Shown piece after piece: positions 24,000 through 52,563 of a stretch of DNA of 64,000 bases. Both the position numbers and the translations under genes were made by a program. The notes beneath the pieces were generated by a model. The model did not search any database and was not told the origin of the DNA. It saw only the letters and a program-made list of their open reading frames with translations. This stretch comes from Candidatus Nomurabacteria bacterium (lineage in GTDB: Bacteria; Patescibacteriota; Patescibacteriia; HK-STAS-PATE-3): NCBI GenBank assembly GCA_023898465.1, contig CP060223.1, positions 128,001-192,000 of the forward strand, in the 5' to 3' direction. How positions within the stretch are numbered: position 1 is the first letter of the stretch; each line of letters starts with the position of its first letter.

Positions 24000-24823
24000 G
24001 CGTGTATTCGCCAACTCAGTTGCAAGCCCTTTGCCGTCAATTTGGCATACGGCCTCAGCGACGTCGCGGGCAAAACTTTGTTATTGATCAACATTTGATT
24101 GATCGTATGCTGCAAGCGGCTGAAATAGACTCCGAGCATCCGATATTAGAAATTGGGCCGGGTTTTGGCGTTTTAACAGAAGCATTAGTGCAAAAAGCGT
24201 CTCAGGTAATAGCAATTGAACTAGAAAAAAAGCTAGCTGAACATTTGCAAAAGCGTTTTTCTTCCCAAAAAAATTTGACCATAGTGCAGAATGATTTTCG
24301 TTTTACTGATCTTGCTGCGCTGGGTCTCCAAGAGGCGGCATATGATGTAGTGGCTAATTTGCCGTATCAAATAACCTCCTTAGTTATTCGGCGTTTATGT
24401 AGCACGCATCCTCGTCCACGTCGTATCACCCTGCTCGTGCAAAAAGAAGTAGCTGAAAGGATTATTGCGCCATCAGGAGAGGCAAGCACGTTAAGTATTG
24501 CGGTGGCTTTTTATGCTCAGGCAAAGCTGGTCAGAACCGTTTCTCCGGCAGCTTTTTGGCCGCGGCCTCAGGTGAAATCAGCTATTCTGCGTCTTGATTT
24601 GCATAGTACCATTCCAAATGTTGACGAAAAACGCTTTTTCTCCATTGTGCGTTCGGCCTTTCAAGGTAAGCGCAAAAAATTGCGCAATTCACTTGCTTCA
24701 GTACTCGGAGTTGAACCAATAAAAGTCGAGGAAATATTGAGAAAACAGGGTATAAATCCAGAAGTACGAGCTCAAGATCTCTCACTTGAGAACTGGTTGA
24801 CAATCGCACAAGAAAAGCTTTGA
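23996..24823 (+). CDS. rsmA: 16S rRNA (adenine1518/1519-N6)-dimethyltransferase
   Basis: KsgA N-terminus RRRGQNFVID...ILEIGPGFGVLTEAL (SAM-binding motif) and NLPYQITS motif. Overlaps tsaC by 4 nt. Confidence 0.9.
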   Translation: MSVYSPTQLQALCRQFGIRPQRRRGQNFVIDQHLIDRMLQAAEIDSEHPILEIGPGFGVLTEALVQKASQVIAIELEKKLAEHLQKRFSSQKNLTIVQNDFRFTDLAALGLQEAAYDVVANLPYQITSLVIRRLCSTHPRPRRITLLVQKEVAERIIAPSGEASTLSIAVAFYAQAKLVRTVSPAAFWPRPQVKSAILRLDLHSTIPNVDEKRFFSIVRSAFQGKRKKLRNSLASVLGVEPIKVEEILRKQGINPEVRAQDLSLENWLTIAQEKL

Positions 24824-24848
24824 CGTAGCGGGACGAAAGTGCTATAAT
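24820..24848 (+). promoter_or_regulatory. near-consensus sigma70-like promoter (TTGACG-17-TATAAT) for the giant-protein operon
   Basis: -35 TTGACG at 24820..24825, 17 nt spacer, -10 TATAAT at 24843..24848. It sits immediately after the rsmA stop and about 40 nt upstream of the first ORF of the operon. Confidence 0.6.
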
Positions 24849-24886
24849 GATGGGGATTTCAAAAGGATTTTTTTCACTACACGATT

Positions 24887-25759
24887 TTGGCTTTTCAGGG
24901 GGAACAACCAGGGGAGAATGACAATACAAAGCTTTTCAATAATGCCCCAGAGCAAGGTAATCAGGTTCCGCCTGAGCAAAGTGGCTCGCGGGGCTTTTTT
25001 ATTGCGTTAATTTCCTTTGGCGCAGTTGGGCTTTTGCTCGGAATTGTGAGCTTGGCAAAGAATATTCAGTCACCTTTTGTACCAAATGCCAACCTCATTG
25101 CGGTGCAGCAGGACACCAATCAAGAAAACATCTCTGATTTGCAGCAAAGAGACACGGATGGAGATGGGTTAAGTGATTACGAAGAACTTTATCAATACAA
25201 CACTAGCCCGTATTTAGCTGATTCTGACTCGGATACCATTGATGATAAGAAAGAAATCGAGAGTGGAAACGATCCGAATTGTCCAAGTGGCCAGGATTGT
25301 ACCGGATTAGGCGTAAATACAAACACGAGTACAGTTGACGATGCATTGGGGCTTACTAATAGCTCCACCAATACATCCGCGACAAATACCAGTACGAGCA
25401 CGAGTGCGGTTGATATGGCACAGTTGCGTGAAGTGTTAAAGGCCTCGGGTGCTCCTGCCTACGTCGTGGATTCAACCGATGATGCTACTTTGCTTGAGCT
25501 TTACAACGAATTAGTAGCTGAGCAGGGTGGTGACTCGCTTGATACCAACTCGACAGATACAAATGCGAGTAACACGTCGACTGTTGATGACGCTACCACC
25601 TTACAACTTCTGCAAAGCTTATCAGCCAGCGAGATACGCGCACTTCTCATTCAAAGTGGCGTTGATCAATCATTAATCGATCAAGTAGACGATTCTGAGC
25701 TGCAGCAAATATTCCTTGATGCAGTGCAATCCGAGTTTTCCTCTGACTCCTCATCATGA
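24887..25759 (+). CDS. secreted acidic low-complexity protein with thrombospondin-type-3-like Ca-binding motifs
   Basis: 290 aa. The ORF begins at a TTG, with no in-frame ATG before the TM segment FFIALISFGAVGLLLGIV. Asp-rich DTDGDGLSDYEE / DSDSDTIDDKKE motifs. Thr/Ser/Asn-rich linker. Confidence 0.55.
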   Translation: MAFQGEQPGENDNTKLFNNAPEQGNQVPPEQSGSRGFFIALISFGAVGLLLGIVSLAKNIQSPFVPNANLIAVQQDTNQENISDLQQRDTDGDGLSDYEELYQYNTSPYLADSDSDTIDDKKEIESGNDPNCPSGQDCTGLGVNTNTSTVDDALGLTNSSTNTSATNTSTSTSAVDMAQLREVLKASGAPAYVVDSTDDATLLELYNELVAEQGGDSLDTNSTDTNASNTSTVDDATTLQLLQSLSASEIRALLIQSGVDQSLIDQVDDSELQQIFLDAVQSEFSSDSSS

Positions 25760-28700
25760 TTCTGCCTTCTGAGCAATCAAAGAAGAAAAAGAGCGTGCGA
25801 GCAATCGCTAGTTTTCTGTTGCCAATGGTTTTACTGGTGACAGTGTTGGGAGTTGCCTTACCACGAGAAAGCAAAGCTCAAATTGGCGCAGTTGGCAGTT
25901 TGGCGGGATTTATTTGGAAGGAAGTAAAAGATTCAGCCCGTTATATTGCCACGCAGGCAAAAGCTGCTTTTGAAAAAGCTCAGGATACCAGTTACGCCAT
26001 TGCGTTTAAGAATAGCTTACGAGTTTTCTTAGGTAAGGTGGCAGAAGATACCGCCGTGTGGGTTTCCAGTGCCGGGACGGGCCAAAAGCCGCTCTTCATC
26101 ACTGATCCGCATTATTGGCGAAATTTGACCGATGCGGCTGGCGGCGACTTTTTGGATTCTATTTCCAAAGATGTTTTTGGAGTAAGTCTGTGTGAGCCGC
26201 TCGATGTGCAAAAGAAGGTTCAACTAGAAATTGCCACCCGCAATCTTATCAATCCTTTAAACGTGTGTGAGAACAGTTGTAACACGACATACAACAATAC
26301 AGCCGAGCAGCTAGGGAACATGAAATCGTATCTTGATCTTCAAGAACGTAAATCACAAGCAAGTCCGAATGCGCTTACCTATTGTCCTGATGAAGAGTTT
26401 CTGCTTGGCATTAGCACTCCAGACAATCCGAATGATCCCTCAACCTATGGCACACAGATGTCAGAGCTTGAGTGTTTTCAACTCATCTCAAACAACTACA
26501 ATCGTCGAAGGCAGCAGGCGACTTCAGAATTGACCTCATGTTTGCAAGATTGTAATCGCGGATCTCGTAAGTCATCCTGTACCGCAACCGCAGTATGGGG
26601 AAACATTCGAGACATTCAGGATTTCTCAGTAGAATTTCAAACTTACTTTAAGCCTGAGCAAAATGATATTGGTCAGATTCTTACCCTTTTCGGCTTGACT
26701 CAGCAAGCAGAAGAAGAGGCGAAGATTGCCGAAGAGACAATTCAGAATAGTAAGTTAGGCGCGGTAACTTCAACGCTTCGTACAGACATCCTTACCCCGG
26801 CCAGCTTGGTAGAAGAAAAAGCAGCCCAGCCTATTCGAGAGTCTTCAACAATTGATACTACGCAAACCGGATCCTTACTCGCTGATGTGGGTAATATTTT
26901 TGCGAACACCTTAACGCAGCGTTTAATGGAGAGATTCTTCCGCAGTAAGTGTGGATTAAATCCAAGCGCATGCGAGGGCCCAGGCCAAACAGACTCCAAA
27001 CTCGGCTCCTTACTCTTTAGCACACGGACTCCAAGCGGTCTGGCAGCTGCGCGACTCCAGTTCGCCAGCTTAGCTCGAATCGATTACACAACAGGAGATC
27101 CAGGTCGTTCACAAATAGCAGTATCAAATCAATTAGAAGCGCAAGGTATAATTAATTCCGGTTTCCGACAGGCTATTGATGAGCACATGACAGTGCGAGA
27201 AGCGTTGAACGCCGGCTTGCTAAATGCCAGCGCAACCTTTGGCTACGACGAAACAGACAATGAAGCGGAAAATGGAATTCCATACCGCTCCATCCTTTAT
27301 CTGCGTAAATATCGAGTCGTCCCTGTTGGCTGGGAGTTGGCCGCTGTGTATATCGGTTCAGATGCAGATAGACAGTCACATGGCTTAGGCGAACTCGTCG
27401 ACCTCTATGATTGGTGTGGACAGGACGCTGCACATGGTTTACCAAATCCAGATGATCCAGAGACACCATTGCCTTCACCATTCTGCGGATTGGTTGACCC
27501 GAGTTGGGTATTAAAAGCTCCTGACACGTACTGTCGACGTCAGGGCGCTGGTGATGAAATTATCCAACGTCGCTATGTGTGTGACACTGATACCAATGGC
27601 GATGGTCGAATTAATTGTAGCCTGAGCGATTTGGGTGGAGGGGATATTGGCTCCTGGATTATTTCACGAAATCAAGATACCTGCGTTGATGAGCCTAGCT
27701 GTGTGGCCGAAGATAGTGATGGGAATTGTCTCGCCTATGGATATTGCTATGAAGAAAAGCCGATTTGGCGTTTCGGCGGTGAAACCTGTAACGGGTACTA
27801 TGCTTCTTGTCGATCTTATACAAATTCAAGTGGCATTCAACTCGCTTACTTAAAAGATACCCTTGATGAGGGCGATTGTAATCCAGAGAATGCCGGTTGT
27901 CGCGCGTACTGCAGCGATGGCGAATACAATGCCGTAAATCAGACCTGGAGTTGTCGCTCTGATTCAGGTGATACTATATACTTTGATCGGGACGCGAGCT
28001 CATGTCCAGATGGTGCGGTTGGATGTACTGAATTAATTCGCACCGAAGCTGGATCAAACGTTTTAGCAAACGCTGGATTTGAATACTATACAGGTACCAG
28101 CGATGACGGCACTCGAGATACTTTTGGCTTCTGCAGTAATAATGGCGCTGCCTGTCAAACCAATGGAGACTGTGGACTCGGGGCAAGTTGTGAAGGTTGG
28201 AAAACTGATAACGGTGCCGTCCAACTACAAGCAGTCAGCGATGATGTGAGTGGCGTTGGTTCACCAGACACCATTGCAGTGCAAATGAGCGCCGGGGTTG
28301 GCAAGCTCATTCACGAAGCTGATGCCTATCAAGATTTGAGCGGCATGCAGATGACTTTCTCATACTACGCAAAAGCGCTTGGAGCAAGTTGTAGCGGCAC
28401 CTTTGGCGTACAAAGCGCTGATGCAATTTATGTGCCAGCCGCTGATGAAGAGGGTAGCGCTGAGTACACCGATCTCTGGCAGCAATATGCTGGAGTCTTC
28501 ACCTTCCCAGAATCAGCTTATACTAAGAGTAAGGTGCAGGCGTACATAAATAATCCGGGCTGCGGTATTTTGGTTGACTCAGCTAAATTAGAATTTAGTG
28601 CTGCGCAAACAGTGTACTCGGATTATCAGACGGTGAATGAAATTTCCATGCAAGTTCCACAGACCACTCTGCTGTCCAACGGAGACTTCAGCTTAGATGA

Positions 28701-31700
28701 TGGAACTGACTTCTTTAGCTACCCAGCCCCAGTTGATGGAGATAACTCTACCGCAGATGACAATATTCCAGACGGCTGGACACCACGAGCAGTAGGAAGT
28801 ATCGCAATTGATCGCACGCAAGGCCACTTTGATGATGAATCACTTCGGATTGACGCTAGTGGAGTGCGTAGCTATGCGGGCCAGCTTGTTCCAGTTGAAC
28901 AAGGTAAAACCTATGAAGTGAGCGGTTGGGTAAAGAGTCAATTGACTCCAAGTGGTGGTGATACTCCATTTGGCGCACTCATGACCGAATGTGTGTACAG
29001 TGCCAGCCATCCAAATGCTTACGAAACATTTAATCCTTCGGCTGATGAGCCAAGCGAGTGTCTCTTGTCTAACTTCGAAACCTACATTCGTCCTTCAGTT
29101 GAAGACGGTAACAATTATTATGTAACAACTGGGACGAGCGACTGGACTTATCTCCGCTATACCGTGACCGCAAATAATCCTGATATCGGCTTTATGCGAG
29201 TTGCTTGTACAAATGTGTCTCAGGATACAGGAGGCATTCAAGCTGATGGTTCTGGTACGGTTTGGTGTGATGATGTGAAGGTGGTGGAAACTCCACTAAG
29301 TTGTGACCGCGAAGAAGTTGGTTGTCAAAAATATCGACCAGTTGGGGCTGGTGATGCCGTAAATGGCGTAGTGCGTTCCAGCGACATTTGTCCGCTTGAT
29401 CAGGTTGGTTGCCGCCAATTCCGTGAAATGCCGATTGAACATGTGCCTCAGCGTGATGGCATTGATCCAGTCTACATTATTGAAAGTTCGGGAAACCAAT
29501 GTACAGCTGCCAGTGTGGGTTGTGAGGAATACACTAACCTTGACCTGGGTGAGTCAGGCGGAGAAGCCTTAGCGTACTTCTCACAAATTAAACAGTGTGT
29601 GAAGCCGACAGATCCAAACGCAGGTAACTTCTATACTTGGGAAGGTAGCGAACAAGCTGGTTATAACCTTCGTGCATACAAACTTCTCACGAGTAATGTT
29701 GATCAAGGTCCATGTACAAATCTTTCGGTCGGTACAACTACCAGCGATCCAATCTGTGAAGACGATAGCAATCCAATCGCTGAGTGTAGTGTGGATGACC
29801 TAGGCGTGAACCCTGATTGTACTGAATACTTTAACGATTCCGGCGAAGTCTTTTATCGCTTGAAGAGTCGAACAGTCACCGTCTCCAATGATTGTCACCC
29901 ATTCCGTAATTCAATTGACGCAGCTGCAGGTGAGGATAGTGTGTATCACGTGATTCCGAGCGAAGCAGTCACTTGTTCCGCCGCTGCAGCTGGTTGTCGT
30001 CAGTACAAGGGAACAACTGCAGATAGTAGCCGTACCGTCTACAATGAGAATTTTGAAAACGGCTCGGTGAACGGTTGGAGTGGGGGCGTGACCTATTCAA
30101 ATGAGTCAGTTAACTTAGGCGGTCACTCCATGCGCACGAGCGACGACACTCTTTTCTCAATCGATCTCTCAAACACCATTACTAACGGCCGAACCTACAG
30201 TATTCAGTTCTCCTATAAGGCTCGGCAGACCGGTGACCTAGCCTTTCAAATTCGCGATGAGCTAGGCGAGAGCTTTGGCAGCACGGTAGCTATTCGGCCG
30301 GGTGAAGAATGGGCGCAGTATGAGCTCGGACCAGTCTTTGTGAATTCAACCGGCGACCCGACCGAGTTTATCTTAGAATTTACCACTCCTTCAAGCCTAC
30401 CAGGCGGGTGGATCGATAATATTAAATTACGCGAATCAGTTGACAGTATTTATCGTATCAAGGGTACGACCTCGTCCTGTGATCCAGCAAATGCCGGATG
30501 TCGCCTCTATGTTGATAGCGCAAATAGCCCGGTGGCAGTTACCTCATTTAGTCATCTCTGCTCTGATCGGGCAGTCGGCTGTGAGGCAATGACAGTGACG
30601 CAAAATTCAGATTATCCTTTTGTGCAGGATGTACAAGATAATCCTGATAAGTTTATTCAAGGTGATCTGACTCTCGCGTATGTAAACTCCTCAAGCGCTT
30701 ATTGTCGGGCAGAGTACCAGGGCTGTACTGAGTATGGCGTTGCTTCCTATGATCAAAATAATGAAGTACTTGCATGGTCAAGCACGAATTTGATTAATGA
30801 TCCAGACACTTATCCGGTAGCACTTTGTCATCCGAGTCAGAATCGCTGTGAAGAGTACACCGAGAGTATTAGTGGCAGTAAGGCCTATTTCCGCGATCCA
30901 GGCAATCAAACCTGTGAATATCGTGAATCAGCTGCCTATGCTGGATTATTAGTAGACGGTTGGTTTATCACGGGCACAAATGAGCCATGTCCATCACAGT
31001 CGTTGACTTGCTTCGGCGGCACTCTGGCTGGTGAACCGTGTATGACGTCGGATCAGCAGCAAGCTTGTCTAAACAATAATGGCTACTGTATCGCCTATCC
31101 ATTAGACGGAGAAGTGAAAGAGGTAAATCTTATCTGTGGTTCAACCTGTTCAACTGGTGGATCAGTTGGTCAGGCTTGTGTGAATAATGGTCAATGCTCG
31201 AATGTGTGTGTAGGCGGCACGAATGCTGGTGCATCTTGTCTACGCAATGATGATTGTGGTGGAGGTGGTACCTGTGAGATAGGGCAGTGCGGTGATGGTG
31301 GTGTGCGGCCTTTCTGTGATGGTCGTCAAACCGGATCAACTCGACAAGATCAGGAAAATTGTTTGGCTGATGATGGGCTCTGTACGGCCATTCCTCAGGT
31401 AGGTCAGCCAGGGCGAACCTGTCAGGGTGGTCCAAACGACGGCCTGTCTTGTGCCAATGATGCATACTGTTCCAGTGTTTGTGCTGGTGGTACAAATGCT
31501 GATAACGCTTGCTTTAACGATAGCGATTGTCCAGGGAGTACCTGTGGCGTGGAAGCGAGTTGTGCAAATTACTGGGTTGGCACCTGCGAGCCGGCCGCTG
31601 CGGGATGTACGGAATTCCGTGACCCTCTTGATCCGCCGCAACAAGGAGCCTATCCAAATGGTTGTCAGGTGAATTGTACGCTGGCCACTGACCGTAATGA

Positions 31701-31896
31701 TAATCTCATTGAGGTAGATGCTGAGTGTCGACCTGGCTCAACAGCAGCGTCACAACCTGGCTGTCAGCCTTACTACATCTTGCGGCAAAGTATTACTTCG
31801 CAAGTTTCCGAATGTAATTCAACTATTGATTTCACTACCGGGTGTCAGCCATTCTATGACACCGCTAATCCAAATGCTAATTTTATAGGGGGTTAA
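25756..31896 (+). CDS. giant secreted Cys-rich surface protein (2046 aa)
   Basis: N-terminal signal/TM segment (IASFLLPMVLLVTVLGVAL). Long uninterrupted ORF with a 4 nt overlap with the upstream gene. Many Cys-containing modules. The C-terminus has tandem CxxxxC/GG-rich modules. Confidence 0.8.
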   Translation: MILPSEQSKKKKSVRAIASFLLPMVLLVTVLGVALPRESKAQIGAVGSLAGFIWKEVKDSARYIATQAKAAFEKAQDTSYAIAFKNSLRVFLGKVAEDTAVWVSSAGTGQKPLFITDPHYWRNLTDAAGGDFLDSISKDVFGVSLCEPLDVQKKVQLEIATRNLINPLNVCENSCNTTYNNTAEQLGNMKSYLDLQERKSQASPNALTYCPDEEFLLGISTPDNPNDPSTYGTQMSELECFQLISNNYNRRRQQATSELTSCLQDCNRGSRKSSCTATAVWGNIRDIQDFSVEFQTYFKPEQNDIGQILTLFGLTQQAEEEAKIAEETIQNSKLGAVTSTLRTDILTPASLVEEKAAQPIRESSTIDTTQTGSLLADVGNIFANTLTQRLMERFFRSKCGLNPSACEGPGQTDSKLGSLLFSTRTPSGLAAARLQFASLARIDYTTGDPGRSQIAVSNQLEAQGIINSGFRQAIDEHMTVREALNAGLLNASATFGYDETDNEAENGIPYRSILYLRKYRVVPVGWELAAVYIGSDADRQSHGLGELVDLYDWCGQDAAHGLPNPDDPETPLPSPFCGLVDPSWVLKAPDTYCRRQGAGDEIIQRRYVCDTDTNGDGRINCSLSDLGGGDIGSWIISRNQDTCVDEPSCVAEDSDGNCLAYGYCYEEKPIWRFGGETCNGYYASCRSYTNSSGIQLAYLKDTLDEGDCNPENAGCRAYCSDGEYNAVNQTWSCRSDSGDTIYFDRDASSCPDGAVGCTELIRTEAGSNVLANAGFEYYTGTSDDGTRDTFGFCSNNGAACQTNGDCGLGASCEGWKTDNGAVQLQAVSDDVSGVGSPDTIAVQMSAGVGKLIHEADAYQDLSGMQMTFSYYAKALGASCSGTFGVQSADAIYVPAADEEGSAEYTDLWQQYAGVFTFPESAYTKSKVQAYINNPGCGILVDSAKLEFSAAQTVYSDYQTVNEISMQVPQTTLLSNGDFSLDDGTDFFSYPAPVDGDNSTADDNIPDGWTPRAVGSIAIDRTQGHFDDESLRIDASGVRSYAGQLVPVEQGKTYEVSGWVKSQLTPSGGDTPFGALMTECVYSASHPNAYETFNPSADEPSECLLSNFETYIRPSVEDGNNYYVTTGTSDWTYLRYTVTANNPDIGFMRVACTNVSQDTGGIQADGSGTVWCDDVKVVETPLSCDREEVGCQKYRPVGAGDAVNGVVRSSDICPLDQVGCRQFREMPIEHVPQRDGIDPVYIIESSGNQCTAASVGCEEYTNLDLGESGGEALAYFSQIKQCVKPTDPNAGNFYTWEGSEQAGYNLRAYKLLTSNVDQGPCTNLSVGTTTSDPICEDDSNPIAECSVDDLGVNPDCTEYFNDSGEVFYRLKSRTVTVSNDCHPFRNSIDAAAGEDSVYHVIPSEAVTCSAAAAGCRQYKGTTADSSRTVYNENFENGSVNGWSGGVTYSNESVNLGGHSMRTSDDTLFSIDLSNTITNGRTYSIQFSYKARQTGDLAFQIRDELGESFGSTVAIRPGEEWAQYELGPVFVNSTGDPTEFILEFTTPSSLPGGWIDNIKLRESVDSIYRIKGTTSSCDPANAGCRLYVDSANSPVAVTSFSHLCSDRAVGCEAMTVTQNSDYPFVQDVQDNPDKFIQGDLTLAYVNSSSAYCRAEYQGCTEYGVASYDQNNEVLAWSSTNLINDPDTYPVALCHPSQNRCEEYTESISGSKAYFRDPGNQTCEYRESAAYAGLLVDGWFITGTNEPCPSQSLTCFGGTLAGEPCMTSDQQQACLNNNGYCIAYPLDGEVKEVNLICGSTCSTGGSVGQACVNNGQCSNVCVGGTNAGASCLRNDDCGGGGTCEIGQCGDGGVRPFCDGRQTGSTRQDQENCLADDGLCTAIPQVGQPGRTCQGGPNDGLSCANDAYCSSVCAGGTNADNACFNDSDCPGSTCGVEASCANYWVGTCEPAAAGCTEFRDPLDPPQQGAYPNGCQVNCTLATDRNDNLIEVDAECRPGSTAASQPGCQPYYILRQSITSQVSECNSTIDFTTGCQPFYDTANPNANFIGG
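31130..31550 (+). repeat. tandem Cys/Gly-rich modules within the C-terminus of the 2046 aa protein
   Basis: Two similar modules: CGSTCSTGGSVGQACVNNGQCSNVCVGGTNAGASCLRNDDCGGGGTC and CQGGPNDGLSCANDAYCSSVCAGGTNADNACFNDSDCPGSTCG. Confidence 0.5.
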
Positions 31897-31897
31897 T

Positions 31898-36469: not shown

Positions 36470-36476
36470 ATATATC

Positions 36477-39400
36477 ATGAACTTTATGCGGTATTCCTTC
36501 CTCCAAGTCGATGCAAAAAAACTGATGCGGATCAGCTTGTTTCTGCTATTGCTTGGAGTTAGCGTATTAAGCAGCAGCAATGGAGCTGGGGCAGCTGGTA
36601 GCGTGGTCATCTCCAATGTCCGTATTAATGATTTAACAACGGGGTATGCTGACATTGGATGGAATACTAACCTCCCTTCAGATTCCATTATTGAGTGGGG
36701 TGTGATTGGCGGAGGCTTGCCAAATCAAGTTGCTGCTAGTGATTTAGTAACGACACATCAACTTCGTTTAGAGCCTTTAGCAGCTGATACGGTCTACGAA
36801 TATCGGGTTGGTTCAAAGCTGGACAGTGAGGCAGAATCTGACCGAGCCTGGTTTCCGGACTCAGGAACAATTACCTTTTCCACACCATCAGGCGGTGGCG
36901 GTGGTAGTGACGAGGGTCCGCGCCTCACCAACATTCAAGTAAATGCAAACTGCTGCAGCGGCACCTTTACTTTCTCAACAAATGAGCCTTCGGCGTATAA
37001 AATTACCATTACCGATGGTCCAAACGCCGTAGGAAATTCAAGTACTTCTGCTCCAGGAAACTTCTTAAACGATTGGTCAGTAGCCTATCCAGCGGACTTT
37101 GTGAATAATATTCCTTTACTGGCCTCAAGTAGCTACGAATATAGAATTGAGTTGACTGATCCAGAGGGCAACTATCGTAGCTACGGACCCTTACCATTCA
37201 GGACTGGGTTGAATCAGTTTGATTATGTGTTTACACCTGGAGTTTGTGCGGAAGATAATACACCTCTTGGTCAATGTAATGAAGATGGCTTCTACTGTGG
37301 ACCAGGCGGCTTGGTTATCAACTGTGAAGTTTGTGGATTCCAATGTCAGGTGGGGGAGACGTGCCGTAATGGTGGAGCCTGTACGACTGATCCGGGCTTA
37401 GGGAATGATTCGTATCAGTGTAATCCTCCATCGTGCTATGGTCGGGCCTGTGTGAATAGCGGCAGCGCTTGTAGTACTGATGCGGATTGTCCTGGCAGCT
37501 CTTGTCAGGAGGGTGTTTTCTTGAGTCCAGCTGGGCCAGGGTGTTACGCATCCTGGAATCAATGTAATGCTAACACTGTAGTGCAGGTTGATCGTGATCG
37601 CGTGTGTAATAAGTGGATGACTTGCCGAACCCAAACGCAGGTAACTAATCCTACAACACAGACAACAGAGAACCTTTGCTATGACTTAGCAGCTTGTGCA
37701 GCCATCGGGCCAAATGGTGAGTGCGCGAAGCCACTCTTTGGTAAATATTGTGTAGGCGATGCATTGCGCTTCTGCTCTACTGGTAATGATTGTGAGTCAG
37801 GACTTTGTAAGCCTGCCTCGGGCACTTATTGTGCTGTTCCACGTCGCCCCAGTCCGACTGAGCCCTATGAATATGTGCCCTGTGATGTGAATGAAGGCGG
37901 TACAAATAATCCAACTTGTTTACCTTTTGACTCTAATGGAAAGTGCACTGAATTTCAGCCGGAAAATGTTACTTATGTAAGTCCAATAGATGTGCAAAAG
38001 ATTAAGTATTTGAGCGGATCAGTCAAAGCAGGTCTTCGCTGGAATACTGGGGTTTCTTTTACTTATGATGGACAGTTTCCTTGGTATTTCATGCCACAAG
38101 ACGGCTCGGTTGTGTCGCTAGGTAACGAGGCATTTGAAAATCAAGAATCAACAACTATTACTAGTAGCAACGGGACTCAGCAAACTGTTATTGATTATAC
38201 AACAAGCCCTTGGTCAGCTTACGGACGTCGCGGCAGTGATAATAGTGAAGCGACTATTACAGTTGTTCCAGAGGATGGAACTGGGCAAAGCAATCCAAAT
38301 CATATATTAAAGATAGACCCCACTGACGCGGGTAGCTATTGTCGCGGTGGAGTAAATGACGGAAACGCATGTTCGGGTGATGTTGACTGCGGCGGTGTTG
38401 CTGATTCTTGTGTTGAGGAGTTTTCCGGAGCGCAAGCCCCATCAAGCCCCTTTTCAACTCTTAATGGTGCAAAATATATTATTTCATTTAAGATACGCTC
38501 CTCTGTCCCTGAGGGTCAAACTATTCAAGCGAGAATTATGTCTCCTAATGGTAGTGTAAGTGAGCTGTGGAGAGGGGAGGTAACGACAAGCTGGCAAGGA
38601 ATAGTTGCTAATCCTGTCCCAGTAAAGGGAGGTAGTGGCTGGTTGCAGTTTGTGCGTTTGTCCGATAATAGTGATCCGTTCTACATTGATGATGTGTCTT
38701 TAAATGTAGCTCTCGGGGTTTCAAAGACTAACAATGCTGAACAACTTAATTATGTTCCCCGATCTTGTCGTTTATATCCAAGCGAAGACTCACTACTATG
38801 TCAGTATCGCGATGACTCCGGAGTCCGATACAAGGGGTGGTATGGCTATTGTCTAGAAAAAGATCCTAAATTTGCTGATCGATGCATTTCTTGGTGGCCA
38901 GTGGATATTATTGGCGGAGAAACCGATGTATATGGGACCTTTGGGTCAGAAATTCAGGCAGGTTATTCCGATCGGAGTCCACTCTATTATTGCGTAGAGG
39001 CTGAAGGGGTTACCGGTGGTGACGAGCTAGATCATGACGGAGATGAAAATGATGTTCCAGTTTCGGAAGTATCCGATGGCTGGAGATTATTACGATCGAC
39101 CATGCAGGGCTATGAAAGTGAGAATGGAAAGTGTAATACTATGCGTTTGTGGTATGGAATTGCTTCGAAAGGATTGCTTGGGGGTTGTGATGATAAAGAC
39201 TTTTTCGGTGACACTGATGGAGATTGTGAATGGAGCGGATGTGATGGAAAAGCTGATTACTCGGTATTTCATTTTGACGATAGTAATAATGACCCTGCTC
39301 ATTTTCAGTGGGATCCAGCTGATGAATATTATAAGAATGAAATTATACAAATATGTATAGATGAAAAAGCTACGACACACAGTGATTGGCATATTGGTAG

Positions 39401-41123
39401 GTTTTGTTTAAATGACGATAATAACTGGAAAGCCCGAAGGGAGCCCGGAGGAGGTAATTTCTTTGAGATCGAAGTAGTTTTTAATACTACTACCGGTAGG
39501 TTAGACGCTTTTAAACTATGGGGTAATGATAAAAGTGGAGATTACGGTGGTTTTGAGGCAAATGTTTCAGTCCAACTGCGTGAAACCTGTAATAAAATTG
39601 TGAAGGTGGTAGATGAAAATGGTCAAAATAAAGCTTGGGCAAGCCGATTATCAATTGGAAGTGGCTATACTATTCGCGACATTAATTATGTACTTACGCA
39701 GGATTTGGCACCTTATGGTGGTGCAGTAACAAGCGCTGGTGATCCATCCACCTGGACTGAAAAATTATACGTTGAACAACCGAGGACAAATGAAAATTTC
39801 ACCTTCCCATATCAATCTCGAGCAGGTTCACCGTTTGCTTGCAAAGGTGATTGTTCAAGTAGGGTTTGTATAGGTGGGGGCTCAACTGAGGGCGCAATCT
39901 GTCATACTGCTGACGATTGTCGAGATAATTCAGGAAACCAGGGCGTTTGTGCTGGTGTAGGAGTGTGTTCTATTTCTCAGAAAGCCTGTCAAGGTAATTT
40001 TAGTGAATCGGGTACTTGCTTAGCGCCTGATGGAACAACGTTAACTGCAGATAAATGTTGTTCCCTAGATAATGCAAGTGATATTTGTATAGGGGGTGCA
40101 GCCAGTATTCGAACTAGTCAGGTATACAATACTGACGATGAATACCAGTGTGAAAAATCCGGCGCTTGGTGTGGCTGTAATAGTCCGACAGATTGTAGTA
40201 ATGTCAATGGTGATACTCTTTGCGAGAGCTATCAAGACGGTGATACATGTAAGGCGATCGCACCCGCAAGTATTTTTAAACGCGCTTTTGCAATTAATAA
40301 CTTGCAGCGTATCTTTTCCGAAAGCTATGGATTCTGGACCTGGAGTCAAAAACAAGGAAAATATATAGCTCAAGAAGGGGCAGAGGATTGGTCGCCACCA
40401 ACTAAGCAATGCCTTGTTTGTAATACTTCACCACAAAAGGCCTGCGACCAGCTTGGAACAACATCTCAATGTGGAGGTGCAACTTGTAATCTTATTAGTG
40501 TTCGAGGAACATATAATACGACTGTTCCCGCGGCAGATTACTGTGGAGTGCGCCCACGGACGTATAATTTTTCGGTAAATGATCAGCAGTCAGCGGATGT
40601 TTCCGATGGATCCTGGGTAAACTTTAAATTTAATTCGACAGCTGATAGTGAGCAGTTGCCGTTAGACTCCCTCTTAATTGATTGGAGCGATGGTCAGCAG
40701 CAATCAGTTTACTTCCCTTATGCGCCAAAATCTGATGCAGGAAATCCACATAACTTGAGTCATCGCTATTTTTGCAGCCCGACGACTCTTGAGAATCTCC
40801 CTACGTGTAACAGTGATCCAAAATTACGAACTTATCCTTGTGCTGGTCCGACTGGAGGGGAGAAACAATATTGTGTATATCAACCTCGCGTGGTTGTTAA
40901 AGATAATTGGGGTTGGTGTAATGGCGTGCCAGCTGATTTTCAAGAAGGCTCAGCATGCCCTTGTGCCGACGGGCAATTCTGTCATCCTCAATATAATATA
41001 TGTGTAGATAATGATTATCTTAACCTCTCATGTGAATCAAGTGATATAAACTTCCCACCGAGCTGGCAAGATTACGCGCCAAACAAAACTATTGAGGTGC
41101 ACGTGCAGCCAATTGGAACTTAG
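36477..41123 (+). CDS. giant secreted Cys-rich surface protein (~1550 aa) with N-terminal Fn3-like domain
   Basis: The ORF runs from 36432 and overlaps the upstream gene. Candidate starts are ATG 36477 and ATG 36525. The latter gives the classic signal peptide MRISLFLLLLGVSVLSSSNGAGAAG. An Fn3-like N-terminal domain (DTVYEYRVGSK) is followed by many Cys-rich modules (CVNSGSACSTDADCPGSSC ...). Confidence 0.8.
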   Translation: MNFMRYSFLQVDAKKLMRISLFLLLLGVSVLSSSNGAGAAGSVVISNVRINDLTTGYADIGWNTNLPSDSIIEWGVIGGGLPNQVAASDLVTTHQLRLEPLAADTVYEYRVGSKLDSEAESDRAWFPDSGTITFSTPSGGGGGSDEGPRLTNIQVNANCCSGTFTFSTNEPSAYKITITDGPNAVGNSSTSAPGNFLNDWSVAYPADFVNNIPLLASSSYEYRIELTDPEGNYRSYGPLPFRTGLNQFDYVFTPGVCAEDNTPLGQCNEDGFYCGPGGLVINCEVCGFQCQVGETCRNGGACTTDPGLGNDSYQCNPPSCYGRACVNSGSACSTDADCPGSSCQEGVFLSPAGPGCYASWNQCNANTVVQVDRDRVCNKWMTCRTQTQVTNPTTQTTENLCYDLAACAAIGPNGECAKPLFGKYCVGDALRFCSTGNDCESGLCKPASGTYCAVPRRPSPTEPYEYVPCDVNEGGTNNPTCLPFDSNGKCTEFQPENVTYVSPIDVQKIKYLSGSVKAGLRWNTGVSFTYDGQFPWYFMPQDGSVVSLGNEAFENQESTTITSSNGTQQTVIDYTTSPWSAYGRRGSDNSEATITVVPEDGTGQSNPNHILKIDPTDAGSYCRGGVNDGNACSGDVDCGGVADSCVEEFSGAQAPSSPFSTLNGAKYIISFKIRSSVPEGQTIQARIMSPNGSVSELWRGEVTTSWQGIVANPVPVKGGSGWLQFVRLSDNSDPFYIDDVSLNVALGVSKTNNAEQLNYVPRSCRLYPSEDSLLCQYRDDSGVRYKGWYGYCLEKDPKFADRCISWWPVDIIGGETDVYGTFGSEIQAGYSDRSPLYYCVEAEGVTGGDELDHDGDENDVPVSEVSDGWRLLRSTMQGYESENGKCNTMRLWYGIASKGLLGGCDDKDFFGDTDGDCEWSGCDGKADYSVFHFDDSNNDPAHFQWDPADEYYKNEIIQICIDEKATTHSDWHIGRFCLNDDNNWKARREPGGGNFFEIEVVFNTTTGRLDAFKLWGNDKSGDYGGFEANVSVQLRETCNKIVKVVDENGQNKAWASRLSIGSGYTIRDINYVLTQDLAPYGGAVTSAGDPSTWTEKLYVEQPRTNENFTFPYQSRAGSPFACKGDCSSRVCIGGGSTEGAICHTADDCRDNSGNQGVCAGVGVCSISQKACQGNFSESGTCLAPDGTTLTADKCCSLDNASDICIGGAASIRTSQVYNTDDEYQCEKSGAWCGCNSPTDCSNVNGDTLCESYQDGDTCKAIAPASIFKRAFAINNLQRIFSESYGFWTWSQKQGKYIAQEGAEDWSPPTKQCLVCNTSPQKACDQLGTTSQCGGATCNLISVRGTYNTTVPAADYCGVRPRTYNFSVNDQQSADVSDGSWVNFKFNSTADSEQLPLDSLLIDWSDGQQQSVYFPYAPKSDAGNPHNLSHRYFCSPTTLENLPTCNSDPKLRTYPCAGPTGGEKQYCVYQPRVVVKDNWGWCNGVPADFQEGSACPCADGQFCHPQYNICVDNDYLNLSCESSDINFPPSWQDYAPNKTIEVHVQPIGT

Positions 41124-41126
41124 CAC

Positions 41127-44100
41127 ATGAAATTCTTTTTGAGACTTACAGGTCGGATGCGAGAAAAAAGGGGACTAGGTCCGACTGTGCTTGTGAGTGT
41201 CTTTATTGTTGCCGCACTGGTACTTTTCTTTCCTGAGAGTCGCGCCTATGCCGCAAGCACGGGAGATAAGGTAGCACTCTTCTTTATTGAGAATTTCATG
41301 TACCCGGTGGTGCAGTTTTTGGCGAACGTATTGATTGTGGTAATAAATATCCTCGTCGCCGTTGCGCAGTACAATGGATTTATCAATGCTCCGGCAGTAG
41401 AAAAAGGTTGGGTGATTGTACGCGATCTCTCCAACATGTTTTTCATTGTCTTTTTGCTTATTATTGCGTTTGGTACCATATTTAAAATCGAAGCGTATCG
41501 TTACAATCGCATTCTTGGTAAGCTAGTTATTTTTGCTTTCTTGATTAACTTTTCAAAGTTTGTTGCTGGATTTTGGATAGACATCGGACAGGTGATCATG
41601 TTGACCTTTGTGAACGGGTTTAAGGACGCAGCAGCTGGTAATTTAGCCTCCGGTCTGGGATTAGACAAAACGCTAGAACTTTCAAACAGTCCACTTCAGA
41701 ACATTGACATCACGAGCAAAGCGCTTTATGGCGCTATTATTCTTGCCTTAATCCTCCTAGGGATTGCCGTTGTAGTGACGCTCATTATTACGGTGTTGTT
41801 GCTTTATCGTATTGTGATGTTATGGATATTGATTGTTTTTTCGCCTTTGGCTTTCCTTACCCGTATTTTTCCAAATACGACCAAATACTCTGATCAGTGG
41901 TGGGGTGAGTTTAATAAGAACATCATTGTTGGACCGGTGCTCGCCTTTTTTCTCTGGCTTTCATTAACTGTTATTGCAACAAGCAATGGAAATCTTGCCA
42001 CAGACTTTCAGTCAGTAAGTACGCAAGAGACTACCGGATTATTAGGCACGGCAAATGAGGCTGGTGAAGGCACTGGTCAGACGATTTCCGCCGCCATCAC
42101 TACGATAGGTGAGTCTGATCGTCTACTTTCCTACATGATTACCATTGGTCTCTTGTTAGGCTCTTTGCAAGCTGCACAACAACTCGGTGCTGCTGGGGGT
42201 CGCTGGGCCGGTTCAATGTCAGAGAAACTGAAGACCGGTGGTTTAAGTGCGGCCGGTGTTCTGAGCGGAGTAGCTGCGGCTCGACTTGCCTTACGAGGAG
42301 GAAAGGCTGGTGCAGAGCGTGTCGGGAGTACCGCATGGCGAACTGCGGTTACGAAATCAAAGGTAGGCAATCGACAGATACTGGCACCTTTAACCAGGAA
42401 ATACTGGGAAGGGTATGCACAGCGTGGGGCTGAGCAGCAGCAAGTCCTTGATCGTCGCATGATGGCCCGTGGGCGCACCATGGCTGATATTGTCCGTGAA
42501 ACCAAGCTCTATGGTGGTGGCGGTGACTTAGCCGTGGGCACCTACATTGAAGACACTGAACGCGCCTTGATTAACGAGGGCTATAATGAAAAACAAAAAA
42601 GTTTAGGAAAAAATCCTAGCTCGGAAAAGGTTGTTCAAGAAATGTGGAGCGCCAAAGCACAAAAAGGTGAACAAGGTATTACTTCAAAAAACAGTGGAGC
42701 GCTTCTGGGTGCTAGAAATGGAAATTGGGACGATCTTAACCAAATGATGTTTTTTAATAAGGAGCTTAAATCAAACATTGAAAAATACGGGCCTGACCCT
42801 GATCAAATCCCTGCAGACGTAAAAAGTAAGCTACTTGAAGAATGGGGCTTTAGTACTGATAGTGCCATTGATGAATGGGAAGATGTGGTGAATGAAAGTT
42901 CGAAACACATGCGTGTCATTATGATGAATTATCTAGGCCTGTCACGTAAGTATGATCCAGAATATCTAGCGGCTCAGGAAGCACAAAAGAGAGGGAAGAA
43001 CATCCATATCATGCGTCGTGAAGGCGAGGCTGGTGACGCAGGTGCTGCAAAAGAATATAAAGAAATTATGCAAAAATCCCAGCAACAAGCTATGAACGAA
43101 GCTAAAAACGCTGGAATTGATGATCGCAATCGACTCATAGCCTTACAGTGGGCCGGTGATGAAGCACTTAGTGTGGGTCAGCACGTTGAACAGCGACATG
43201 GACTCTTTAATGAAGAAGAGGGGTATAGCTATATTGGCACCCTAGAAAAAATGGCAGATGATTCTTACGGTCTGCTGAACAAAACAGAATCATCCAAAGT
43301 TATGGAGCGCATGTCGCCTCATGCCATTACTCCGCGCTATTTTGATACGGAAACAGGTGAGATAGACTATAATACTGACGCATCTGAATGGAGCGAGATT
43401 GGGAAACGGATGTTTAAATTCTTTGGTAAGTTTACCAACCGTGAAATTGGACGAATGTCGGGCCGTGTCGGTGAACAAATTATTGGACTTGATGGTGTTG
43501 TAGGAAAGAAAAATGTAATCTTTGATGCAAAAGGTCAATTTTACGAAGGCGAAGGAACAGATGAAGAAAAGAAAGCGCGTCGAGCTGAATCACAACGTCG
43601 GTGGGAGGCTATGTATAGTCAAGACTCACTTTCCGCGAAGAAATTATATATGAAGGTGTTTACCGGAAGTGCTGACGGATTTAAGGATTGGGATAAAGGT
43701 GGACAAACAATAAAAGGATGGACTCCTCCAGCACCGACAGAGGCGGAAAAAGCAGCTGTAAAAAAAGCTGAGGCTGAGGAAAATACAGAGACGGCTAATA
43801 AGGCAACAGGTGAAGAAAAAACATCTACGTCCGATACCGCGCAAAAAGATGAAACTAAATCGCCCGGAGGAGTGGTTTTGACTCCAGGTGCTCAGTTTAA
43901 GGCAGAACAAGAGGGGGAGGTAAAAACATCAGATAGAAGTAGTCAAACTCCTTCAGTAGAGCCTAGTGCTGATGAAAAAGCGCCTTATAATCGAGAACAT
44001 ATGCAAGCCTCTGATAGTTATGGCAGATTGGCGAATTCTTTGACCGCCTATCATGATGAATTGCCAAAATCGGCTGATGAGTTACGTACAACTATTAGCG

Positions 44101-44345
44101 AGCTTGGTCGTAACGTAACAGATGCGGTTGATCGTTTGAATAATATTCAGAGCAATGTAAAAGCTCCAGACTTAAAAAATGAAATAGGCGGTCTGGTAGA
44201 TAAATTGAAGACCCATCAGGAAAACGGAGAATCAATTCGCTTTAATCGAACCCCGGCTGATGAGCAGCGAGAATTCTTTAAGCGCAGTACAGAATTACTT
44301 GGTGAGGTGGGTAAGGTAATAAAAAAGTCAGTTAAAGAAAAGTAG
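41127..44345 (+). CDS. polytopic membrane protein, VirB6/TrbL-like (putative), with ~750 aa charged C-terminal extension
   Basis: 1072 aa. The N-terminal ~330 aa contain about 6 TM helices, a topology typical of VirB6/TrbL. The remainder is Lys/Glu-rich, coiled-coil-like and soluble. The family assignment rests on topology and context only. Confidence 0.6.
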   Translation: MKFFLRLTGRMREKRGLGPTVLVSVFIVAALVLFFPESRAYAASTGDKVALFFIENFMYPVVQFLANVLIVVINILVAVAQYNGFINAPAVEKGWVIVRDLSNMFFIVFLLIIAFGTIFKIEAYRYNRILGKLVIFAFLINFSKFVAGFWIDIGQVIMLTFVNGFKDAAAGNLASGLGLDKTLELSNSPLQNIDITSKALYGAIILALILLGIAVVVTLIITVLLLYRIVMLWILIVFSPLAFLTRIFPNTTKYSDQWWGEFNKNIIVGPVLAFFLWLSLTVIATSNGNLATDFQSVSTQETTGLLGTANEAGEGTGQTISAAITTIGESDRLLSYMITIGLLLGSLQAAQQLGAAGGRWAGSMSEKLKTGGLSAAGVLSGVAAARLALRGGKAGAERVGSTAWRTAVTKSKVGNRQILAPLTRKYWEGYAQRGAEQQQVLDRRMMARGRTMADIVRETKLYGGGGDLAVGTYIEDTERALINEGYNEKQKSLGKNPSSEKVVQEMWSAKAQKGEQGITSKNSGALLGARNGNWDDLNQMMFFNKELKSNIEKYGPDPDQIPADVKSKLLEEWGFSTDSAIDEWEDVVNESSKHMRVIMMNYLGLSRKYDPEYLAAQEAQKRGKNIHIMRREGEAGDAGAAKEYKEIMQKSQQQAMNEAKNAGIDDRNRLIALQWAGDEALSVGQHVEQRHGLFNEEEGYSYIGTLEKMADDSYGLLNKTESSKVMERMSPHAITPRYFDTETGEIDYNTDASEWSEIGKRMFKFFGKFTNREIGRMSGRVGEQIIGLDGVVGKKNVIFDAKGQFYEGEGTDEEKKARRAESQRRWEAMYSQDSLSAKKLYMKVFTGSADGFKDWDKGGQTIKGWTPPAPTEAEKAAVKKAEAEENTETANKATGEEKTSTSDTAQKDETKSPGGVVLTPGAQFKAEQEGEVKTSDRSSQTPSVEPSADEKAPYNREHMQASDSYGRLANSLTAYHDELPKSADELRTTISELGRNVTDAVDRLNNIQSNVKAPDLKNEIGGLVDKLKTHQENGESIRFNRTPADEQREFFKRSTELLGEVGKVIKKSVKEK

Positions 44346-44351
44346 TTTTTT

Positions 44352-45755
44352 ATGGTTACCTTTGAAGATTTTTACGAATATCACGACGTAGAGCGTCTAT
44401 CAGTCGAGGAAGTACAAAAGGCTGAGGTGTTAGCGGCTATTCGTGACGCATTAACACATGCCTGGTATCAAACCCAGCCTGGTAAGGCTCATTCGGTCCT
44501 TAGTTTTATCGACCAAAAATTTTCTACAATACCAAAGAGTACACTTCCTGAAGAGATAAAAACGCTCCTTTTTCAAATACAATGTATTGTCGAATTTTCT
44601 TCTCTCCCTTCCACCAGTCCGGAAGAAGTTCAAGAATACATGCAAAAGAAATCTCGGGTACCTCTTTTCATTGAAGAGCTTGAATTACAGGACATCATGC
44701 CGAGACTCATCCAGGTGCATTTAGGCTTCCCTGATTTGTTCTTACGTTGGTTTGGATCGGCAGTACAAGGCTTGCGAGCAGGTGAGCAAGAGATCGGCAA
44801 TTCTCGCATCCAATTGTTTAATGGTAAGGTGAGTAGTCCAACAATAGGCTCGTGGACGCAGGACTATGAACGATTTGCCGAAAATCATCCGGCTGATGGT
44901 GACGTAGTTATTGCTGAGTACATGACCAAGAGTCCGAATATTCGTTCCTTGGAAGATTCGGATAAAGCAGCCATTCGTAAGCTCTTTACTTGGTTTAACC
45001 TTTTATCAATCGATCAAAGTCCAATTTTGAGGGTGTCAGAGGCCAGTCGCCCGCGAGTAAGTCCTTCTAGTGTGTCAAAAATACCAGATACTCTTACACA
45101 AGAGCCAGATAATGATGTACTTGCACCAGTTGCCCCACAAAAGAGTATGGGTAAAATAAAACCTGTTCAAAGTGCAGCACAAGAGAAGCCGGAGCGAGAC
45201 GTGAGTCCACAAGAGTTATTACTCACTAATCTGCATAATTCAAGCAACCTAGTTGAGCGCTTTGAACGTTTAGAAAAAGATTTGCCCCCGGCTGGACCAA
45301 AGAGCATTATGCAACTTACTGCATTGGCGGAAAAAGCCTTAGCAGGGCAGGAGAAGTCAGGTCGTGTAATCGCTGGAATATTTCAAATAGTGCGAGCAAG
45401 GGGATTACAAGCCTTACTGAGCGACGCTTCATTTGTGAACCTTATGCGTAAGACAATGGCGCCGGAATTAGAGCAGCGTCTGCGCCTTACGCATGACCAG
45501 GCCGTGCAGGTAAGCGATTCACCGGCCAATCGCATGGTGATCTTAAAAGAGTTTTTTAAGGCTCTCTTTAATACTGCCACCGGATCTGAGGCTGATGCGG
45601 CACGCTTAATGGTGCATGTGGCAAGTATTGTGCCAGAAACAATGGCTGGTCCAGAAGCAGGTTTTGCCTATTTTGATATGAGCGACCAGCATTTCCACTG
45701 GTCTTTGACTGAAGTGCGCTCAGCCGATGGTGTGCTTCGTAACAGAATTCCGTAG
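44352..45755 (+). CDS. hypothetical cytoplasmic protein (467 aa)
   Basis: Clean ORF 7 nt after the upstream gene. No TM segment and no recognisable motif. It is the last gene of operon 1. Confidence 0.65.
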   Translation: MVTFEDFYEYHDVERLSVEEVQKAEVLAAIRDALTHAWYQTQPGKAHSVLSFIDQKFSTIPKSTLPEEIKTLLFQIQCIVEFSSLPSTSPEEVQEYMQKKSRVPLFIEELELQDIMPRLIQVHLGFPDLFLRWFGSAVQGLRAGEQEIGNSRIQLFNGKVSSPTIGSWTQDYERFAENHPADGDVVIAEYMTKSPNIRSLEDSDKAAIRKLFTWFNLLSIDQSPILRVSEASRPRVSPSSVSKIPDTLTQEPDNDVLAPVAPQKSMGKIKPVQSAAQEKPERDVSPQELLLTNLHNSSNLVERFERLEKDLPPAGPKSIMQLTALAEKALAGQEKSGRVIAGIFQIVRARGLQALLSDASFVNLMRKTMAPELEQRLRLTHDQAVQVSDSPANRMVILKEFFKALFNTATGSEADAARLMVHVASIVPETMAGPEAGFAYFDMSDQHFHWSLTEVRSADGVLRNRIP

Positions 45756-48118: not shown

Positions 48119-48127
48119 TATATTGTT

Positions 48128-50801: not shown

Positions 50802-50817
50802 CATTAACCTCAAATTT

Positions 50818-51396: not shown

Positions 51397-51418
51397 TCAG
51401 AATCTTTGCAGTATTTTC

Positions 51419-52552: not shown

Positions 52553-52563
52553 TCACTATTCAT

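Follow-up and report, generated by a model that had tools for sequence, protein, structure and literature searches.

Giant cysteine-rich exported proteins encoded ahead of a type IV secretion system in a Candidatus Nomurabacteria genome: a candidate host-contact module

A metagenome-assembled genome from the Patescibacteria (Candidatus Nomurabacteria) contains a gene cluster in which very large exported proteins are encoded ahead of a type IV secretion system (T4SS). We have analysed a window of 64,000 nt around this cluster (contig CP060223.1, positions 128,001-192,000, forward strand; coordinates below are positions within the window), and find that the T4SS genes are headed by a conserved, tightly linked module comprising a small acidic protein (g1), one or more giant proteins and an extended VirB6-like protein (g5), with the sequence features of proteins that are exported, disulphide-bonded and lectin-bearing. 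The original prediction, made from the sequence alone, had placed six co-directional genes here, and all of the open reading frames (ORFs) lie where it put them (g1 to g6, 24887-45755, forward strand); the junctions, described as overlapping or separated by at most 7 nt, measure -4, +1, +7, +3 and +6 nt in order. It overlooked a seventh small gene (45773/45821-46102) and a promoter-like site that follows it. Proteins identical to those encoded here are recorded from this Patescibacteria genome, on a contig of 1.08 Mb. The features of the module are as follows.

24820-24848 (+): sigma-70-type promoter-like site, TTGACG (24820-24825), 17-nt spacer, TG-extended TATAAT (24843-24848)
24887-25759 (+): g1, 290 amino acids (aa) from a TTG start; acidic, one N-terminal transmembrane segment, two TSP3-type calcium-binding motifs
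25756-31896 (+): g2, 2046 aa; exported giant, corresponding to the N-terminal two thirds of an ancestral giant
31898-36469 (+): g3, 1523 aa; exported protein with immunoglobulin-like (Ig) and Fn3 modules
36477-41123 (+): g4, 1548 aa; exported giant, counterpart of the ancestral giant's C-terminal third, aligned from about residue 316-360 onward
41127-44345 (+): g5, 1072 aa; extended VirB6/TrbL-like protein with a polytopic N-terminal domain
44352-45755 (+): g6, 467 aa; cytoplasmic, no transmembrane segment
45821-46102 (+): g7, 93 aa from ATG 45821 or 109 aa from 45773; small conserved ORF between g6 and the T4SS core
46159-46187 (+): second promoter-like site, TTGGAA, 17-nt spacer, TG-extended TATATT

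Translation of g4 could begin at GTG 36432 (1563 aa) or ATG 36477 (1548 aa), the latter being most likely, as the alignment of homologues starts at its methionine and a gene call places the start there too.

The near-consensus promoter proposed upstream of g1 is present as a site with 11 of 12 matches to the sigma-70-type consensus and a TG-extended -10 hexamer; it has the top score in the region, and the end of ksgA, its last codons, overlaps with the -35 hexamer. Sites of this quality number three in the window against about 1.1 expected by chance, and for two of them, at 24820 (+) and 18525 (-), a gene begins shortly downstream; promoter-like and terminator-like matches of lower quality are no more frequent than chance predicts. 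Three distant genomes (L087, L088 and L089) likewise have promoter-like sites in this relative position, just upstream of a g1-like gene. The sole sizeable gap in the cluster, of 166 nt between g7 and the first gene of the T4SS core (h1), contains the 46159-46187 site, which is possibly a second promoter for the core genes, and no terminator-like hairpin was found in it. The unit probably extends past 45755 to take in g7, the T4SS genes then following with a promoter-like site of their own, and because of the make-up of this gap the functional unit would best be drawn as running from 24.8 to 55.6 kb with one or two promoters. GC content is uniform across the locus, and Rfam and tRNA scans gave no match inside it.

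The giant proteins and their relatives

The original prediction of secreted proteins of 2046, 1523 and about 1550 aa is borne out in that g2, g3 and g4 all have N-terminal export signals. The signal of g2 is followed by a conserved N-terminal module, helical and then alpha/beta, and by modules resembling the carbohydrate-binding modules (CBMs) of families 4 and 22; the Pfam family CBM_4_9 (PF02018) matches two stretches with an E value of 3.1e-13. This protein contains 93 cysteines (4.55%) and nine copies of a hairpin motif, C-x5-[GA]C-x2-[YF], against 0.9 expected, while g4 has a signal peptide of its own, two Fn3 domains and 81 cysteines (5.2%). These cysteine contents are the highest among large ORFs in the window; proteins of the locus that are cytoplasmic have about 0-0.3%. 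The third large protein, g3, is composed differently, with 1.7% cysteine and with four Big_7, fn3/Pur_ac_phosph_N and Glucodextran_B modules. Pfam and NCBIfam scans detected no catalytic domain in the giants, in keeping with the enzymatic motifs having been described as absent; neither a C-terminal anchor nor an LPXTG-like motif was found in g2 or g4, and no adhesin domain of the PrgB or antigen I/II type is among the Pfam matches of the locus proteins. Some relatives of the giants bear additional PA14 and dockerin domains.

The locus had been described as encoding three giants. Three large ORFs are indeed present, but comparison with other genomes indicates that one ancestral giant is represented by g2 and g4, one half each, and that an Ig/Fn3 protein has been inserted between them. 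In most lineages the giant is a single ORF of 2,700-3,200 aa, of which the N-terminal ~1,700 residues align with g2 and the C-terminal ~1,100 with g4 from about residue 316-360 onward, whereas in the clade of the window it is split into proteins of 2046 and 1548 aa with g3 (1523 aa) between them. Most split-type loci have one or two large exported proteins between the halves, and these are g3-like in the majority, among them L003, L004, L009, L012 and L019. In a neighbour-joining tree of VirB4 the split-type loci form one clade adjoining the fused-giant clades, so that the split state is derived; the split g4 has gained its own signal peptide and its two Fn3 domains. Paralogy of g2 and g4 was considered and rejected, as only short Cys-knot motifs are common to both and they represent consecutive parts of one protein. 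Since they are a single polypeptide in most relatives, g2 and g4 would be expected to work as one assembly, the coexistence of fused and split forms constituting a natural 'Rosetta stone' that predicts a physical interaction between them. The split-type g2 proteins (window 31870-31896; homologues P0135-P0164) share a conserved C-terminal motif, ...NP-x-x-N-[FM]-[RI]-G-[GK], which may be a trace of the point at which the ancestral giant was split, or else a processing or docking signal.

AlphaFold2 models were built for g2 residues 41-1000 and 36-640 with 40 homologues as input, and both have a mean predicted local distance difference test score (pLDDT) of 66-67. The long N-terminal helices are of low to moderate confidence, and the alpha/beta domain (residues ~450-600) and a beta-sandwich (residues ~770-950) are confident. 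The beta-sandwich is matched by Foldseek to CBM4/22/16 modules (probability 1.0, E ~5e-7), and a profile of the giant family matches CBM4/22 structures in the PDB at two conserved positions (1gui, 6.6e-8; 4xup, 1.2e-6). When the PDB was searched by sequence and by profile with g2, g4 and the giant and VirB6 families, the matches were confined to CBM4/22, Fn3 and low-complexity sequence of TolA-like type; a colipase-like match to a Cys knot of g4 was marginal (E 0.06) and was not used. No solved fold matches the N-terminal module of g2. Conservation within the family peaks in that same module, at up to 63% identity per 50-aa block, the least conserved parts being the distal Cys-knot regions and an additional segment, specific to the lineage, at g2 residues ~950-1150; conserved core blocks are present in the g4 part as well.

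The association of the giant with VirB6 was examined by an alignment scan for VirB6 against one genome per species. The scan gave matches to at least 596 stretches, from which the 80 best loci were taken and their ORFs compared by BLASTP and family hidden Markov models (HMMs). We define the giant family by the conserved N-terminal module (g2 residues ~270-625) at the start of a protein of more than 1,600 aa upstream of VirB6. Of the 53 non-redundant species-level loci whose upstream sequence extends for at least 9 kb, 44 encode a member of the giant family no more than 10 kb upstream of the VirB6-like gene (83%, a figure biased towards relatives because sampling took the 80 loci nearest to the query); the 44 include two loci that the HMM filter missed through its ORF-overlap rule. 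The gap between giant and VirB6 is 35 nt or less in half of the measured cases, a g1-like TSP3 gene precedes the giant in at least 21 loci, and the triad of g1, giant and VirB6 is kept even where the neighbouring genes differ.

Searches that start from the giant give the same picture. Reverse look-ups of two distant giants (P0178 and P0169) agree with the synteny comparison, finding the order LeuRS-MFS-(Sua5)-KsgA-TSP3-giant-VirB6-...-PrgI-TrsD-VirB4, and a third (P0179) has the matching upstream order on a contig that stops after the giant. Four look-ups in other organisms, including a Kerfeldbacteria metagenome-assembled genome (~30% identity), recovered the order giant (CBM)-Ig/Fn3 protein-giant-VirB6-...-PrgI-TraC-like-VirB4. 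A word-based search found 13 relatives of g4 and 46 of g2, and those with an organism name are all from Patescibacteria. A HMMER scan of 1.84 billion representative sequences with g2 residues 36-640 returned 756 proteins at E<=1e-10, corresponding to about 756 clusters at 50% identity; among the matches listed, nearly all are 1,600-4,500 aa long with the module at the N terminus. The family so defined comprises some 750 clusters, is unannotated, and has at its core a module for which no known fold gives a match. Literature searches found no prior account of a link between such giants and the T4SS, and both the family and its linkage to VirB6 appear to be undescribed in the literature available, the T4SS itself being known. 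The large FhaB-type proteins of Patescibacterium danicum (PMC11809585) are of a different kind from the giants here.

In giant-less loci smaller exported proteins precede VirB6, and in several other loci smaller proteins are situated between the giant and VirB6. Recurring proteins of ~163, 507, 315, 463, 277, 553 and 204 aa replace the giant directly upstream of VirB6 in a subgroup of seven loci, several of them from Falkowbacteria (L044, L045, L047, L050, L062, L069 and L076), and partly similar smaller proteins lie between VirB6 and a giant farther upstream in five loci of a related subgroup (L023, L035, L049, L051 and L070).

The secretion system and its partner proteins

The g5 protein, described originally as a VirB6/TrbL-like polytopic protein of 1072 aa, is polytopic and in the expected position, although its match to the TrbL/VirB6 family of Pfam (PF04610; residues 129-293, E 4.2e-5) is below the cut-off, at 23.8 against 25.9 bits. 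At least five hydrophobic helices lie between residue 19 and about residue 390, and are followed by ~680 residues that are hydrophilic, charged and free of cysteine. The TrbL/VirB6 profile matches 11 of 28 members of the g5 family (best E 8.7e-7), several homologues have precomputed PF04610 or PF19590 (TrbL_3) annotations, and the position of the g5-type gene next to VirB3/VirB4 is kept across 80 loci; the g5-family sequence profile has no match among solved VirB6 structures. The polytopic N-terminal domain and large hydrophilic C-terminal domain resemble those of the extended VirB6 proteins reported previously (PMC12857230), from which g5 differs in its sub-threshold TrbL match and in a low-complexity, charged, TolA-like C-terminal stretch.

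The acidic composition and calcium-binding-type motifs proposed for g1 are present, with 47 acidic (D+E) against 9 basic (K+R) residues, a very acidic ectodomain, and two copies of the TSP3-type motif D-x-D-x-D-G-x-x-D-x-x-E at residues 89-100 and 112-123. Free secretion does not hold; because of a hydrophobic segment at residues 38-56 the protein is predicted to be membrane-anchored. Its match to PF18884 (24.9 bits) falls just under the 25-bit cut-off, and TSP3_bac matches are weak or faint in the g1-like neighbours of other genomes too. As originally described, g6 is a 467-aa cytoplasmic protein in which the Pfam scan found no known domain; it is kept downstream of VirB6 in part of the loci, and paralogy with h1 was rejected, since BLASTP shows no similarity. 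The small g7 protein likewise has no known domain; its counterparts in 15 related loci are 42-56% identical to it.

The T4SS-like apparatus that had been recognised at 46269-55636 is confirmed by the identification of PrgI/VirB3, TrsD-like, VirB4, VirB2-like pilin and SLT components among the following genes.

46269-47606 (+): h1, 445 aa; cytoplasmic; conserved, with 60 of 86 loci having it immediately ahead of PrgI
47606-48118 (+): PrgI/VirB3-like protein (PF12666, E 1.5e-8)
48128-48829 (+): TrsD/TraC-like protein, a homologue of VirB4 in its N-terminal part (sub-threshold NCBIfam match to TrsD, E 4.5e-7; precomputed PF26593, TraC-like)
48822-50801 (+): VirB4 ATPase (PF19044, TraG P-loop, E 2.6e-30)
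50818-51396 (+): h5, 192-aa bitopic membrane protein; a candidate VirB8-position component
51356-52552 (+): 398-aa protein rich in cysteine (13 Cys), with a VirB2-like T4SS pilin domain (PF18895, E 3e-10)
52564-53814 (+): membrane-anchored beta-propeller-like protein (domain scan)
53811-54449 (+): membrane-anchored DsbA-type thiol-disulphide oxidoreductase (Thioredoxin_4, E 2.1e-29; DSBA, E 2e-17)
54446-55636 (+): T4SS pilin domain fused to an SLT lytic transglycosylase (VirB1-like function), 396 aa, 14 Cys (PF18895, E 1.3e-8)

Both proteins with VirB2-like pilin domains are unusually large and rich in cysteine. The presence of a DsbA-type gene within the cluster would fit the many extracellular cysteines predicted for its products, and DsbA-like genes are present again in 14 related loci. 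No relaxase or VirD4 coupling protein is among the Pfam matches for all but the smallest ORFs of 447-60604.

Judged from its sequence, this is a monoderm T4SS derived from the MPF-FATA class. The T4SSs of Patescibacteria have been described as related to monoderm MPF-FATA conjugation systems, with VirB2-like pilins and without a relaxase (PMC10633639, PMC12102498, PMC12857230). The system here resembles the published ones in having an extended VirB6-like protein, PrgI/VirB3, a TrsD-like protein, VirB4, VirB2-like pilins and a lytic transglycosylase, in the absence of a relaxase or type IV coupling protein from the cluster as seen here, and in its chromosomal location beside KsgA and RadA/RecG, as is reported for the class ABY1. 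It differs in what precedes it, since those descriptions include no adhesin or giant Cys-rich protein, whereas here about 16 kb encoding giant exported proteins, together with a TSP3 anchor, form a conserved and integral part of the cluster at its upstream end. A survey of Patescibacteria T4SSs detected 'no adhesins such as PrgB' (PMC12102498; Quinonero-Coronel et al., 2025), and the cluster of Southlakia epibionticum (SEML1_0006-0019), an organism whose T4SS is essential for epibiotic growth (PMC10633639; Wang et al., 2023), lists no giant Cys-rich protein.

The arrangement has a parallel in the prgQ operon of the Enterococcus plasmid pCF10, in which the genes for the surface proteins PrgA, PrgB and PrgC are upstream of prgH (VirB6), prgI (VirB3) and prgJ (VirB4). 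In both cases one promoter, here a promoter-like site, is followed by surface or adhesion proteins and then by the VirB6-VirB3-VirB4 genes of a monoderm T4SS, and the presumed role, cell-cell contact for the channel, would be the same. This is a functional analogy and not homology. No sequence or domain homology was detected, the giants having neither a PrgB-type domain among their Pfam matches nor an LPXTG sortase signal, and the proteins here are two to three times larger, Cys-rich, CBM-bearing, and chromosomal and vertically inherited as opposed to plasmid-borne. Similarly, the beta-sandwich modules of g2 match the CBM4, CBM9 and CBM22 modules of glycoside hydrolases by Pfam, family profile and fold, but have no attached catalytic domain and are set in a disulphide-rich giant scaffold.

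Proposed role of the module

We think it probable that g1 to g7 (24887-46102) constitute a cell-surface host-contact module of a chromosomal T4SS of the Patescibacteria type, whose core is at 46269-55636. The original prediction had proposed adhesin-like giants coupled to a type IV channel, as would suit an epibiotic bacterium from the candidate phyla radiation; the synteny in 44 of the 53 loci, the export signals, the cysteine content, the CBM4/22-like modules and the DsbA-type gene accord with this, and adhesion as such is what we infer. To our knowledge all cultivated Patescibacteria, a group that makes up a large share of bacterial diversity, are attached to host cells, and theirs is the first T4SS proven essential for growth. 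The giants would be the best candidates for the host-contact part that has so far been missing from that system, and candidates too for determinants of host recognition and host range.

A possible mechanism is as follows. The near-consensus promoter would drive transcription from g1 to g7, and the channel genes would be expressed by read-through, from the promoter-like site at 46159, or both. The g2, g3 and g4 proteins would be exported by the Sec pathway and oxidized outside the cell, where the product of the DsbA gene of the same cluster may act. The g2 and g4 halves would presumably reassemble, with g3 contributing Ig/Fn3 spacer modules. The conserved N-terminal module of g2 could then be held at the membrane by docking to the TSP3 calcium-binding anchor g1, to the extended VirB6 and/or to the pilins, leaving the variable distal parts, with their CBM4/22-like lectin modules and disulphide knots, to bind glycans of the host envelope. 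Such binding would keep the epibiont in contact with its host and position the VirB6/VirB3/VirB4 channel and the pilus.

Several observations weigh against this proposal. The Saccharimonadia T4SS, the sole genetically studied one in Patescibacteria, has no such giant in its listed cluster, so that a giant is not universally required. A giant is absent within 10 kb in 9 of the 53 loci, and the proportion that have one is biased by the sampling of close relatives, as noted above. The N-terminal module of g2 matches no solved fold and its model is of moderate confidence (pLDDT 66-67), because of which its docking to VirB6, the pilins or g1 is purely what we infer.

A more ambitious version, which we offer tentatively and regard as possible, is that in most Patescibacteria outside the Saccharimonadia the giant and its TSP3 partner form a so far unrecognized part of the T4SS that is extracellular and close to universal, that they recognize and possibly breach the host envelope, that they are as essential as the channel, and that the N-terminal module is a new fold that docks on the extended VirB6 and/or the pilus.

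The adjacency of the giant to VirB6, which is almost obligatory and often involves overlapping or abutting genes, might also be expected if the giant were not primarily an adhesin but an integral extracellular part of the T4SS, such as a wall-spanning stalk, a cap or a pilus-tip complex, replacing components of the VirB5, VirB8, VirB9 or VirB10 type. The high conservation of the N-terminal module (up to 63% identity per 50-aa block), the mirroring of the virB5-virB6 gene order and the VirB2-like pilins in the cluster point the same way, and VirB8 is seldom detected in Patescibacteria (PMC12102498). Nonetheless, the Saccharimonadia T4SS functions without a giant, and variable distal modules of lectin type suit recognition more than they do a fixed conduit; we consider a purely structural role unlikely, while noting that it is compatible with host contact and that the two are not mutually exclusive. 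A VirB5-like identity of the N-terminal module is not supported, as neither a VirB5 helical-bundle fold nor a profile match was found.

If the giants were instead general envelope proteins, forming an S-layer-like coat or capturing polysaccharides, their proximity to the T4SS would imply no functional coupling. The wider neighbourhood, from LeuRS-MFS-Sua5-KsgA to RadA/RecG, is itself conserved, so that the synteny could in part be a frozen, vertically inherited gene order, and CBM modules are typical of glycan-processing proteins. Set against this are the very tight junctions to VirB6 with no terminator-like site between, the retention of the g1-giant-VirB6 triad where the surrounding genes differ, and the lack of catalytic domains in Pfam and NCBIfam scans, which together make mere neighbourhood improbable. 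The adjoining T4SS is relaxase-less and of a kind thought to export proteins (PMC10633639), but it is very improbable that the giants are what it exports, whether as effectors or as polymorphic toxins for the host cell, since their N-terminal Sec-type signals and many disulphide-forming cysteines imply folding outside the cell, which is incompatible with T4SS translocation from the cytoplasm, and since their C termini are conserved and not polymorphic, a toxin domain and a neighbouring immunity gene both being absent.

The wider neighbourhood

The cluster is flanked upstream by genes for leucyl-tRNA synthetase (LeuRS), a major facilitator superfamily (MFS) transporter, Sua5 and KsgA, and downstream by RadA and then, on the opposite strand, RecG. 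KsgA is reported to lie near virB4 in many classes of Patescibacteria, and recG/radA near T4SS loci in the class ABY1 (PMC12102498). Because the housekeeping flank LeuRS-MFS-(Sua5)-KsgA is conserved, we regard the locus as vertically inherited chromosomal DNA; a mobile-element origin was rejected on the grounds of uniform GC content, the lack of an integrase or relaxase family among the Pfam matches of the scanned ORFs, and the conservation of these flanks in distant genomes.

The LeuRS of the window (18614-22198, forward strand; 1194 aa) has an alpha/beta-hydrolase domain inserted at residues ~250-450 (Abhydrolase_1/6, Ser_hydrolase); the syntenic LeuRS has a NUDIX domain instead in L089 and no insert in L087 (815 aa), so that one housekeeping enzyme hosts different inserted domains among Patescibacteria. 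Divergent from LeuRS is a gene for an M23 peptidase with two LysM domains (17059-18402, reverse strand), and the 18525 (-) promoter-like site upstream of it reads TTGACA, 17-nt spacer, TATAGT with TG (11/12). In L088 a 2807-aa RHS/YD-repeat protein (1-3986; CARDB, DUF6531, RHS_repeat, TEN_YD-shell) is encoded a few genes upstream of the KsgA-TSP3-giant block. Elsewhere in the window, the ORF at 2908-3975 (+) encodes a protein, hydrophobic at its N terminus, whose thioredoxin-like match is weak, and that at 10660-12894 (+) a protein of 744 aa with a hydrophobic N terminus and Fn3, Pur_ac_phosph_N and CBM_48-like modules, which suggests that this small genome may encode more surface glycan-binding proteins elsewhere.

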